From Saccostrea cucullata (Eukaryota), in contig NW_026937255.1 of assembly GCF_032062105.1 (NCBI RefSeq), positions 1-64,000 on the forward strand: 64,000 bases of DNA, read 5' to 3'. The position numbers and the translations under genes were made by a program. Below the pieces are notes generated by a model that saw only the letters and a program-made list of their open reading frames with translations, did not search any database and was not told where the DNA came from. This document shows, one piece after another, positions 1-13,533 of this stretch. How positions within the stretch are numbered: the first letter of the stretch is position 1; every line of letters starts with the position of its first letter.

Positions 1-330
1 GAATGGACCGACGAATTAGACGGGGATCACATCACCAAATTCATGTCGGCAGGTCCTAAAAATTATGGTTTTCGGACGGACAAAGGAACCGAGACCCTTA
101 AATGCAAAGGAGTCACTCTCAACCATCGAACCTCTCAGTTGGTGTGCCCAGAGACTTTAGAAAAAATGCTCAAGGGAGGAATAGAGGAAGTAAAAGTCCC
201 CTATCCCAGGAAAATCCAGAGGACCCGGGATTATGAGGTCGTGAATAAACCTTCAGAGAAAACAGTTAGAATTGTATATGACAAGAGACAAATTGTAGAG
301 AATTATAACACTTTACTTTATGGTTATTGA
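1..330 (+). CDS. polB: C-terminal part of protein-primed DNA polymerase B, left-arm copy (5'-partial)
   Basis: EWTDEL...GPKNYG...KCKGVTLN...YDKR..YGY, the C-terminal motifs of Polinton-type pPolB. Mirror of 8109-8438. Confidence 0.9.
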   Translation, partial: EWTDELDGDHITKFMSAGPKNYGFRTDKGTETLKCKGVTLNHRTSQLVCPETLEKMLKGGIEEVKVPYPRKIQRTRDYEVVNKPSEKTVRIVYDKRQIVENYNTLLYGY

Positions 331-408
331 TATGTTGATATGTTTGTTGTTTGTTGTTACAAATAAAAAATTGAATTGTTGTTTTATGTGTTGTTGTTTT
401 TTCTTCTC

Positions 409-444
409 TATAAAAGGTATTCTTATTCAAAATCAAAGGTCATT
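409..444 (+). promoter_or_regulatory. TATA + TCATT initiator promoter of IAP (mirrored near 8001-8036)
   Basis: TATAAAA at 409, TCATT at 440, ATG at 452. AATAAA follows the polB stop (362) and the IAP stop (989). Confidence 0.65.
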
Positions 445-451
445 TCTAATC

Positions 452-984
452 ATGGGGAATCGCGAGCCAGACCAACCCATGCGTTTTCCCAGTATGCTCA
501 GCTCTCAAAGAGAGAAGCTACTTTTGAGCAGGGGTGGCCTGAACTTCTCTCAGGAAAAATACCAGACCTAGCTCGAGCTGGGTTTTACTACAGGGGAGTG
601 AAAGATAACGCTACCTGTTTTCATTGTGGAATGACTTTAGAGAATTGGGATCTTGAGGAGGATCCTTATGCAGAACATGCTTATTGGAACCCCAATTGTC
701 CTTACATCAATCAGTATAAAGGACGAAGCTGGGTGATGAGTATATTTGTCAGGGACTTAGAGAAGCAGGGATATAAACCTTTACCTGAGATTAAACCTCT
801 ACTGAACCCAGAACCAGACGTCCAGGCTCGAGGAAAATGTCACATTTGTTTAGACGAGGAATTACAAATCGTTTTTCTACCTTGTGGACACGTATGCTGC
901 TGTGCCTTGTGTGCTCCTTCCTTTCAGTTTTGCCCCATCTGTCGAGGCGAGATTCAACAGTCCAAACGGATATTTCTGTGTTAA
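452..984 (+). pseudogene. iap: BIR-RING inhibitor of apoptosis, left-arm copy with 1-bp frameshift near 487-490
   Basis: Same protein as 7460-7993 but TTTTCCCAG in place of TTTTCCCCAG splits it between ORFs 320..571 and 376..984. This could be a homopolymer sequencing error. Confidence 0.88.
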
Positions 985-1449
985 CTATAAATAAAAAAGA
1001 CAGAACCCAAATTTGGTGTTTTCTATTGTTAAGCAAGCTCCTCAGACCTAGATTTTTTTTTTCAGTGATAAAGAATGAGATTTTTGAATTATTCCTAATT
1101 CAAAATTCTCTATTGGTTTTTTCCTCTGCAAGTTAAAAAATAATTACACCTGAGAGTCTATATAAAAAGGAGACCTACAAAACCAACAGATCATTTCTGA
1201 TCTGAGTGAGGGACAGTAAGGCACAACAAATGAAAGTGAAATCTTTTTTTTTTATCATAATACATAATTTTGTAATAAACAAACACTAGAAAGTTACTCT
1301 CATAATGAGCCTTAATGTCTTCCAAGAGTTTAGTTTGGACTTCCTCCATTAATCCTTGTATCTACTCCATTGGTTTTATGGGCTAAAACCATGTGTCTTG
1401 TGAGGTGTCAAAACAAGTCGGTCATGGATTGACACGAGTCATCAACTTT

Positions 1450-2258
1450 TGAATGAAAAGTTCATTTTCTTCTATGAAACATGTATGAAACTTATATTAT
1501 TTTGAGTCAATATTCATATTAAAAGCATACTTTCAGTCACTTTCATACAAGATAGTCAACATTTCATACAAGAATTGATTTGACATGATGACAAAGCGAA
1601 ATTCTGTCGTCTGCTTTGATTGACAGGTGTCATGACGTCATAATGACGTCATAATTCAGTCAAATTCAATTCCTGAATGAAAAGTTCATTTTCTTCTATG
1701 AAACATGTATGAAACTTATATTATTTTGAGTCAATATTCATATTAAAAGCATAATTTCAGTCACTTTCATACAAGATAGTCAACATTTCATACAAGAATT
1801 GATTTGACATGATGACAAAGCGAAATTCTGTCGTCTGCTTTGATTGACAGGTGTCATGACGTCATAATGACGTCATAATTCAGTCAAATTCATTTCCTGA
1901 ATGAAAAGTTCATTTTCTTCTATGAAACATGTATGAAACTTACATTATTTTGAGTCAATATTCATATTAAAAGCATAATTTCAGTCACTTTCATACAAGA
2001 TAGTCAACATTTCATACAAGAATTGATTTGACATGATGACAAAGCGAAATTCTGTCGTCTGCTTTGATTGACAGGTGTCATGACGTCATAATGACGTCAT
2101 AATTCAGTCAAATTCATTTCCTGAATGAAAAGTTCATTTTCTTCTATGAAACATGTATGAAACTTATATTATTTTGAGTCAATATTCATATTAAAAGCAT
2201 AATTTCAGTCACTTTCATACAAGATAGTCAACATTTCATACAAGAATTGATTTGACAT
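1450..2258. repeat. 224-bp tandem repeat, about 3.6 copies, two ATGACGTCAT palindromes per full unit
   Basis: GAATGAAAAGTTCATTTTC recurs at 1451, 1675, 1899 and 2123. Confidence 0.97.
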
Positions 2259-11994: not shown

Positions 11995-12022
11995 GTCTAT
12001 CAGATGATGGCTCTGAGGGTAA

Positions 12023-12310
12023 AATGAACCCAAAGTCGGAGAAAAACCGTATTTATACAGTGGATGACGTCATAATGCACAGGTAAGTTTTTTGCACACG
12101 GCACTTTATAGAGGATGCAAACAGGTATATAAGAAAACACAGGTAAAACGTATATTTCTTTTGCACACGACCCTAATTTTTTGCACACGGCACTTTATAG
12201 AGGATGCAAACAGGTATATATATAAGAAAACGCAGGTAAAACGTATTTTTGCACACGGCCCTAAAATATTCCTATAGTATATAAACCAGCGCTGGACATT
12301 GAGGATCATT
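12023..12310. promoter_or_regulatory. Divergent promoter region between polB and the orphan ORF
   Basis: Minus strand: TATAAAT at 12057-12051 and TCATT at 12027-12023. Plus strand: TATATAAA at 12278 and TCATT at 12306. One CRE near 12065. An approximately 90-bp direct duplication carries four TTTGCACACG motifs. Confidence 0.65.
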
Positions 12311-12346
12311 CTGTGTGAGTACTAGGAAGTGAACACAGGTAAAAAA

Positions 12347-12871
12347 ATGGAGCACGCAAAAAATGTGATAGAGGAAACGGAGTATCGTTGGTTTATTGAG
12401 ACTTTAAATGGTATTGACAAGGAAGGACATTGGATGATAACGCCACAAGAAGTCATACAGGATTTTATGAATTTTAAATTCCATTCCACAGAATCTAAGC
12501 AAAGAAAACTTGGTGAAAGTTTTTGGTTTGAAAGCAGAAATAAGTTTCATGCTGCAGATTGTCCTAAGACAACAAACTTACACTTCACTTTTATTCAGGG
12601 GATGGATGGTACTACAAAATACAGCTGGTCAATCGAGGGTGATCATGGAATTGTGGATAGAAGTTTCTGGTAGAGAAATTCAGAAGACTGTCTTCAAAAT
12701 TTGTTCGAGGGACCCTGGAAAAATAGAAAACTTCCAGCCAGTTATGAATTCTACCTGAATGCTCGTATGCCTTTTAAGACTGTCTTCAATATTACTTGTC
12801 AAATTTGGGGTATAACAAGTGATTGATTACAGATCCCTGAAAAGGCACAGAAGAAGAAACAGAAAATGTAA
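12347..12871 (+). pseudogene. Orphan ORF of the Polinton-like element (about 174 codons if stops at 12671 and 12824 are read through)
   Basis: TATA/Inr upstream. The frame continues after TAG as RNSEDCLQNLFEGPW...QKKKQKM and ends just before AATAAA (12897). Confidence 0.55.
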
Positions 12872-13129
12872 ATTGTATGTATTTTTTTTCATTGTGAATA
12901 AAAATTGAATAAAAATCAAAATCTGTGTTCTTGTTTTCAGTAAAAATCCAGGTTGTTATTGTTTTCAGTAAAAATCCAGTTTGAACCGGTTATAGGGCTG
13001 TCTAGACTGTGAAGCGTGACGTCATAATCACATTCTTGTAATGTTTTGCACACGGCGCATTTACCTGTGTCCATAAACAAAACGTAGTACCAACGTACCA
13101 ATGTAAACACAGTGTAAACAACTCCGTAT

Positions 13130-13429
13130 TTAGGGGATAGGTTAGGGAATAGGGTTAGAGGGCTAAGGGGGTTAGGGTTAGGGGTTAGGGATAGGGATAG
13201 GGGGTTAGGGTTAGTTAGGGCTAGGGTTAGGGGGTTAGGGTTAGTTAGGGGGTTAGGGTTAGGGTTAGTTAGGGCTAAGGGGGATAGGGATAGTTAGGGT
13301 TAGTTAGGGTTAAGGTTAGGGTTAGGGGGTAAGGGGCTAGGGTTAGGATTAGGGTTAGGGTTAAGGCTAGGGGGCTAGGGTTAGAGGGGTTAGGGATTAG
13401 GGCTAGGGTTAGGGGGAATTAGGGTTAGG
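13130..13429 (+). repeat. Degenerate telomere-like (TTAGGG/CTAGGG/ATAGGG) tract inside the element terminus
   Basis: About 300 bp of TTAGGG variants ending about 104 bp before the ACTACT end. Confidence 0.95.
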
Positions 13430-13533
13430 ACTGCACTCAGTTGACCCCCTTATCCCCTCCACCAATCAGAACTGATCACGTGATTTCTCTCAGCCAATCA
13501 GAATCTTCCCCTATCTAGGCCCCTTATACTACT

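Follow-up and report, generated by a model that had tools for sequence, protein, structure and literature searches.

The window analysed here, a stretch of 64,000 nucleotides of Saccostrea cucullata DNA (contig NW_026937255.1, positions 1 to 64,000, forward strand), begins with a palindromic element that ends at position 13533 and carries a protein-primed DNA polymerase B (pPolB, gene polB) and an IAP gene in inverted arms. This element belongs to a family of mobile elements that includes complete Polintons/Mavericks with the same ends, hereafter called helpers. Self-alignment reproduces the arms and the AGTAGT-type end reported in a preliminary description of this DNA: segments 1-3684 and 4327-8438 are inverted copies, with 98.7% identity over both segments and 642 bp between them, and the right arm runs on to ...CCCCTTATACTACT (ACTACT), closing at 13533 with TTCCTA next to it. 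The copy number of an internal tandem array differs between the arms, as had also been noted. Position 1 of the window is the first base of contig C19392, hence the left arm is cut off and shows the last 110 polB codons only; a perfect copy with an intact centre has a computed length of 19.7 kb. The features of the element and of its insertion site are as follows (ORF, open reading frame).

1-3684, plus strand: left arm, inverted copy of 4327-8438, cut by the contig start; full-length counterpart at C12688:12616-22419
1-330, plus strand: C-terminal end of the left pPolB copy
320-984, plus strand: left IAP copy, split over two frames
1450-2258: left 224-bp tandem array, 3.6 copies
3685-3698: fold-back remnant (hairpin loop and start of the copied arm), common to C5590 and C87
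3685-4326: 642-bp spacer, the end of the right arm next to the centre, without a mirror counterpart on the left; in other copies both arms have the spacer sequence
3685-7226: AT-rich (30% GC) non-coding core, common to gene-less palindromes
4327-13533, minus strand: right arm, 9207 bp
5749-6994: right 224-bp tandem array, 5.6 copies; a related array lies in the 4.8-kb element C2965
7220-7232: subfamily junction at ~7226, where the polB-IAP segment of a deleted parent meets the non-coding core; the left arm has it in mirror image
7460-8119, minus strand: IAP gene (BIR and RING)
8109-11994, minus strand: pPolB in four broken frames (10966-11994, 9904-10905, 8442-9881, 8109-8438)
12084-12264: short direct repeats upstream of polB, retained in gene-less copies too
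12347-12673, plus strand: orphan ORF, belonging to a small family of paralogous ORFs present in helpers
13130-13429, plus strand: subterminal degenerate TTAGGG tract, 23 exact copies
13430-13533, minus strand: conserved terminus, reading 5'-AGTAGTATAAG on that strand and containing two CCAAT boxes
13534-13539, plus strand: target-site duplication TTCCTA, partner copy at the other end seen in C12688
13534-15282, minus strand: interrupted Gypsy-type pol ORF (host flank, outside the element)

The pPolB frames match PF03175 (E 3.6e-33 and 3.2e-19), and the orphan ORF has no Pfam match over the cut-off and no match in PHROG or Atlas. A tblastn search with the helper proteins gives no match for ATPase, integrase, capsid or protease in window 1-13533 and none for integrase in contig C12688, in which both arms hold polB and IAP; the earlier claim that these two genes are doubled in an element devoid of integrase and capsid genes is thereby upheld. 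The frameshifts in the polB of the window copy may be consensus errors, and in several sister arms polB remains open over long frames of at least 1300 residues; the window copy, with its polB broken, relies on helpers for everything. Residues 100-139 of frame 8442-9881 give weak matches to DUF559 and MTES_1575 (restriction-endonuclease-like, E about 0.02), and the accessible text of PMC11161782 reports endonuclease domains inserted in Polinton polymerases.

The missing half of the element is found in C12688, which represents the same insertion: this contig contains 2976 bp of the right flank of the window with 0 substitutions, followed by the element in the reversed orientation. The element of C12688 measures about 19.4 kb; its ACTACT end lies at 22419, and the next six bases, TAGGAA, reverse-complement the TTCCTA beside the window terminus. 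The Gypsy pol ORF continues across the insertion, with residues 628-794 in the window flank and 799-845 in the far flank of C12688, so that the two flanks complete one ORF and define one element of ~19 kb, one 6-bp duplication and one interrupted retrotransposon. The mirrored arm, the TTCCTA and the rest of the Gypsy element that had been predicted beyond base 1, where the window contig starts, are all present in C12688, and the predicted size of ~18.6 kb with arms of ~9 kb agrees with the ~18.6-19.7 kb supported here. The left junction of C12688 (2950-3040) is scrambled: flank pieces are joined at microhomologies with one backward jump, and the terminal ~130 bp are gone, much like an end-joining repair scar. 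For this reason the duplication was read from two contigs. It rests on the two flanks, since in the one further Gypsy copy inspected the empty site is 13 bases longer.

The genome searched for relatives is a 1.17-Gb assembly, in which a 20-letter terminus pattern occurs 617 times, as against 0 for a control pattern, with many of these motifs close to contig ends. Searches with pieces of polB and of the capsid gene gave 377 candidates (150 scored, all at least 88% identical) and 273 candidates, respectively; the elements described below were mostly picked by sequence match, and four by the terminus alone, so that their counts are not frequencies. Full-length helpers sharing the terminus, for which the preliminary description had suggested a search, occur in C1717, C1237, C3875 and C2707. 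They are 20.2-22.7 kb long with terminal inverted repeats (TIRs) of 0.1-0.6 kb, and all four carry polB, an rve integrase with a chromodomain and an ATPase (PF04665 over the cut-off in a direct scan, the 0 matches of the whole-genome PF04665 search being a false negative). The helpers also encode a 481-residue double-jelly-roll capsid protein (Atlas 0.98) and two further ORFs: one, putatively a protease by motif resemblance, has a weak match to a viral cysteine protease (E 0.083), and the other, presumably a minor capsid protein in view of its gene position, gave no match in profile and database scans. The polB region of the window is 93.5-95.7% identical to those of C1237 and C3875 and 89.7% identical to that of C1717, and IAP directly follows polB in 2 of the 4 helpers examined. 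Among the accessory ORFs of C1717 (33138-38561) are one with a weak Viral_Rep match (E 1.4e-4, under the cut-off), one for a RING-like protein and one for a CCHC zinc-knuckle protein.

An exact 6-bp target-site duplication (TSD) flanks 11 of the 13 elements with both ends read, and six of these eleven are palindromes of 10-24 kb (C159, C17414, C12341, C19840, C12648 and C154), whose TSDs differ from each other and whose mirror symmetry halts at the termini. Palindromes with polB and without IAP (C19840, C12648) coexist with at least six that have neither gene. Several other arrangements were encountered. Contig C19684 holds two mutually inverted palindromes of another helper subfamily (1043-19649 and 56401-74677), with polB, IAP and the start of the ATPase gene around a simple-repeat centre. 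Folded helper halves that double integrase or capsid genes are seen at C5492:6390-17549 and C11529:31116-37888, on contigs that show no termini, and their mobility is putative. At C5590:6655-10078 two termini face each other across 3.4 kb bounded on both sides by GACGTT, the arrangement that a tandem or circular target would produce.

The composition of the window arm can be traced segment by segment. From the terminus side, the arm matches the IAP-bearing helpers as far as the IAP end at 7450. From 7227 outward, it is 95% identical to a group of non-palindromic deleted elements (C3427:2453-20168, C21004:62357-81482 and C17880) that are without ATPase, integrase, capsid and protease genes and have one non-coding arm, one polB-IAP arm with a long open polB, and 6-bp TSDs; this group is likely to include the parents of the window arm. 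Inward of ~7226, the core is 98% identical to the gene-less palindrome C19916; there is no ORF of at least 70 residues within core 3685-7226, and Rfam gives 0 matches for this region in three related loci. The junction at 7226 is present in 8 contigs, among which there are at least 5 distinct flanks, and this provides the independent insertions that had been proposed as a search target: both inverted arms have it in 7 of these contigs, the eighth, C87, stops just past the centre, and C12341 has an exact TSD. Judged by these alignments, IAP is inherited from the helper lineage.

The centre of the element records the folding. In gene-less relatives the sequence of the 642-bp spacer is present in both arms and continues inward, and C5590 and C87 place the fold of the window subfamily at 3685-3698, with a loop of ~17 bases. 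A different central piece is lost in each of the window, C12688, C5590, C87, C15075 and C14033 copies, which makes the spacer secondary: the spacer junctions, which had been proposed as a search target, reflect a private one-sided deletion and are not the junction of the family, whose shared feature is the fold point at ~3685-3698. In unfolded relatives, the fold site is an imperfect inverted repeat forming a 12-bp stem-loop (z -2.5 and -2.9, 4/200 shuffles) within the top 4.6% in stability of the 2531 windows of that arm. Folded copies retain the parental loop and one mismatched base, followed by perfect mirror sequence, a signature that would be expected from self-priming. A second fold point is common to C19916, C6605 and C19840, which also have an inserted spacer in common, and a third, with a 21-base loop, is common to two loci, C159 and C17414/C19403. 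At this third centre, an 80-bp AT-rich hairpin is doubled head to tail in C17414 (40670-40830) and C19403 (63400-63570) and single in C159. A cryptic terminus, AGTAGTATAA, was considered as the cause of folding and rejected: it occurs in only 2 of 12 unfolded relatives and is absent from the closest ones.

The history of the arms was followed in a tree of 741 non-coding core columns from 13 contigs, which represent 11 loci. The two arms of a locus form their own clade at 9 of the 11 loci, with 2 loci unresolved, and the median core distance to other elements is 8-14%. The gene-less C19916 and C19840, which has polB in both arms, have the same centre and cores that are 0.14% apart, with outer arms that are unlike and nevertheless symmetric; the outer arms have therefore been swapped symmetrically without the creation of a new centre. 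In the allelic pair C19403/C17414, the left arm groups with the left arm (0.14%) and the arms within each element differ by 1.3-2.3%, which indicates that arms diverge after insertion.

The model that we consider probable makes the window element a helper-dependent snap-back satellite of the resident Polinton/Maverick family, cycling between a hairpin and a palindrome; its replication and packaging we infer. It is best filed as a non-autonomous Polinton derivative working like a snap-back defective genome. The contig sequences show a series that comprises a helper with the same ends, internally deleted relatives, the join at ~7226, the hairpin fold-back, insertions with 6-bp TSDs and later copy-specific central deletions. 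The cycle would start with terminal-protein-primed strand displacement on a free linear copy, during which the nascent strand would pair with itself and be extended back to the terminus, giving a hairpin of about 10 kb. If this hairpin is primed at its open end and copied round the loop, the product would be a palindromic duplex with two termini, which the helper integrase would insert. Displaced or aborted strands would snap back again, so that one arm would be re-copied from the other and rearrangements would be found in both arms, the centre being inherited. A copy-back or snap-back defective genome integrated by a helper, one of the two origins offered in the preliminary description, thus finds support in the helpers, the stem-loop at the fold point and the TSDs. 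Elements from three unrelated fold points, differing in the genes they carry, measure 19.3-20.2 kb (C19840, C19916, C159 and the computed perfect form of the window subfamily), as compared with 20.2-22.7 kb for the helpers, and this near-constant length suggests selection for packaging. A broader proposal, that animal Polintons routinely spawn unit-length palindromic satellites through hairpin-to-palindrome replication, arm rewriting and an 18-20 kb limit imposed via helper capsids, is advanced tentatively, as an idea for which we would claim somewhat less than an even chance.

Several observations weigh against the satellite model or its packaging component. Some palindromes are shorter, at 6.6, 10 and 14 kb. 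The second fold point has no strong hairpin in two unfolded relatives, where 24% and 36% of windows are equally stable. Within an element, the two polB arms are 0.6-2.3% apart (six elements compared), and for five of these elements the majority of the differences are letters also present in other copies, a pattern that suggests ectopic conversion or assembly mixing; likewise, the right arm of the window is 2.2% from the C12688 arm with the same flank and only 1.3% from the opposite arm, so that conversion or mixing blurs the record. Contig C14033 joins the flank of the window locus (left, 99.2%) to the flank of another locus, that of C15075 (right, 99.9%), with no TSD and, judged from these flanks, is an ectopic recombinant or a mis-assembly. 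The data are an assembly and short-read contigs, and no free hairpin or linear molecule was observed in them. The core sequence was found in short-read-contig runs of three studies, the best word coverage among 24 listed sequencing runs being 0.40, and four short-read runs gave no strand-change joint on a 98%-similar arm, such contigs showing presence and not absence. Finally, the pairing of the arms could also be due to chromosomal conversion of one arm by the other. It is on this last process that the strongest competitor is built: the palindrome would have arisen in the chromosome by a break with hairpin fold-back and repair, or by overwriting of one arm, and would then have been moved as a long-TIR transposon by the helper integrase, with no hairpin replicon and with gene conversion keeping the arms alike. 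The conversion-like mosaicism in polB and the left end of C12688, where microhomology jumps form a scar reminiscent of repair, agree with it, and the TSDs prove the action of an integrase only. We nonetheless judge it rather unlikely, as the arms of C19403/C17414 drift after insertion and are not homogenised there, and at least three separate fold points, along with the folded helper halves of C5492 and C11529, gave elements of near-unit length.

That the palindromes are artefacts of sequencing, amplification or assembly, produced by fold-back reads in a high-copy repeat, appears very improbable. Three contigs that share the window flank do have three different centres, C14033 is chimeric, many termini lie near contig ends, the short-read contigs are without the fold-back joint and the frameshifts in the window polB may be consensus errors. 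A folded read, however, would mirror the flank too, whereas here the mirror stops at the termini; in six palindromes the flanks differ and yet share an exact 6-bp duplication, the flanks of the window locus continue a single Gypsy ORF, and identical complex centres recur at unrelated loci. The differences between the arms had been put forward as the argument against an artefact: the differences are real, and the argument is weak, since those in polB are mostly shared letters. It is by the TSDs and the distinct flanks, rather than by arm differences, that an artefact is excluded. Lowest of all we place the other origin proposed earlier, in which the polB-IAP palindrome would be a self-replicating linear-plasmid-like replicon whose IAP is selected to keep host cells alive. 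The open polB frames of several sister arms, the doubling of both genes and the terminal-protein domain that Polinton pPolBs possess according to the available part of PMC11161782 are in keeping with such a replicon. This origin fares badly with the remaining evidence: IAP simply adjoins polB in half of the helpers examined, C19840 and C12648 have polB without IAP and at least six palindromes are without both, polB and the left IAP of the window copy are broken, and all copies seen are integrated and without an integrase of their own, free forms being invisible in an assembly.

The rest of the window is rich in other repeats. Two 0.5-kb elements resembling miniature inverted-repeat transposable elements (MITEs), 96% identical and with their own inverted ends, lie 4.9 kb apart at 54380-54886 and 59286-59793. 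Satellite arrays of 164-168 bp are dispersed at 23878-24333, 26465-27258, 31949-32290 and 53209-53560, and arrays of 156 bp and 180 bp are located at 20138 and 35839. Long open frames at 27419-29056 and 41804-42976 (plus strand) and at 29525-31367 and 60133-63998 (minus strand) probably belong to other transposons; those at 60133-63998 may, judged by their motifs, be pieces of a Helitron helicase.

Long inverted arms and internal tandem arrays are also characteristic of foldback-type or MITE-like non-autonomous DNA transposons mobilised in trans; the window element differs from these in having Polinton ends and genes, a size of ~19 kb and whole genes in its arms. The Neurospora kalilo plasmid is said to have a hairpin and a duplex derivative. 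In phage phi29, template switching yields subgenomic molecules, as described in the accessible text of PMC4974454. The likeness lies in the duplication by fold-back of one end of a protein-primed linear genome, in dependence on the proteins of the parent; as far as these partial accounts go, such products are free molecules, whereas the window family is of near-unit length, sits in the genome between TSDs, is inherited and has split into subfamilies. With autonomous Polintons/Mavericks, as presented in the available portions of PMC8097293 and PMC6431247, the window element has in common the AGT-repeat end, the 6-bp TSD, pPolB and a size within 12.7-24.6 kb. The intact vertebrate Mavericks of PMC8097293 (134 elements), whose size is constrained, have TIRs of 46-1,447 bp; here, in place of TIRs of at most about 1.5 kb, there are arms of ~9 kb, with polB and IAP doubled and integrase, ATPase, capsid and protease missing. 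Upstream of gh1 in Chinook salmon, an insertion of ~20 kb with a 10-kb palindrome has been assigned to Polinton-1 (PMC2584663); it has the same size and a palindrome and, in the passages at hand, is a single locus mentioned in passing, with no family, parents, fold point or mechanism. Pieris Polintons have gene-bearing TIRs of ~2 kb (bioRxiv 10.1101/2025.02.07.637071) and, in the portion of that preprint consulted, share with the present family core genes doubled in inverted repeats and mobile derivatives without core genes; their TIRs flank a unique middle, whereas the window element is almost wholly its own mirror image and its doubled genes are polB and IAP. Our literature search found no description of a palindromic Polinton satellite family; Repbase and supplementary files lay outside this search, and an earlier description may exist.

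In conclusion, the replication of Polintons and their free packaged stage in animals have so far been inferred from gene content alone, and Polinton particles have not been observed according to the accessible text of PMC8097293. A young and large family in which helpers, deleted intermediates and palindromes reside in one genome leads to specific predictions: hairpin DNA of half length, junctions at defined fold points and selection for unit length. The arms of these elements can date insertions, as pairs of long terminal repeats do; with palindromes of 19 kb at many sites, breakage of both assemblies and chromosomes is to be expected. If the broader proposal of routinely produced satellites is true, the palindromes would represent defective-interfering genomes, fixed in the germline, of a DNA virus with protein-primed replication, and would constitute the clearest genomic footprint so far of Polintons replicating as free linear DNA by strand displacement.

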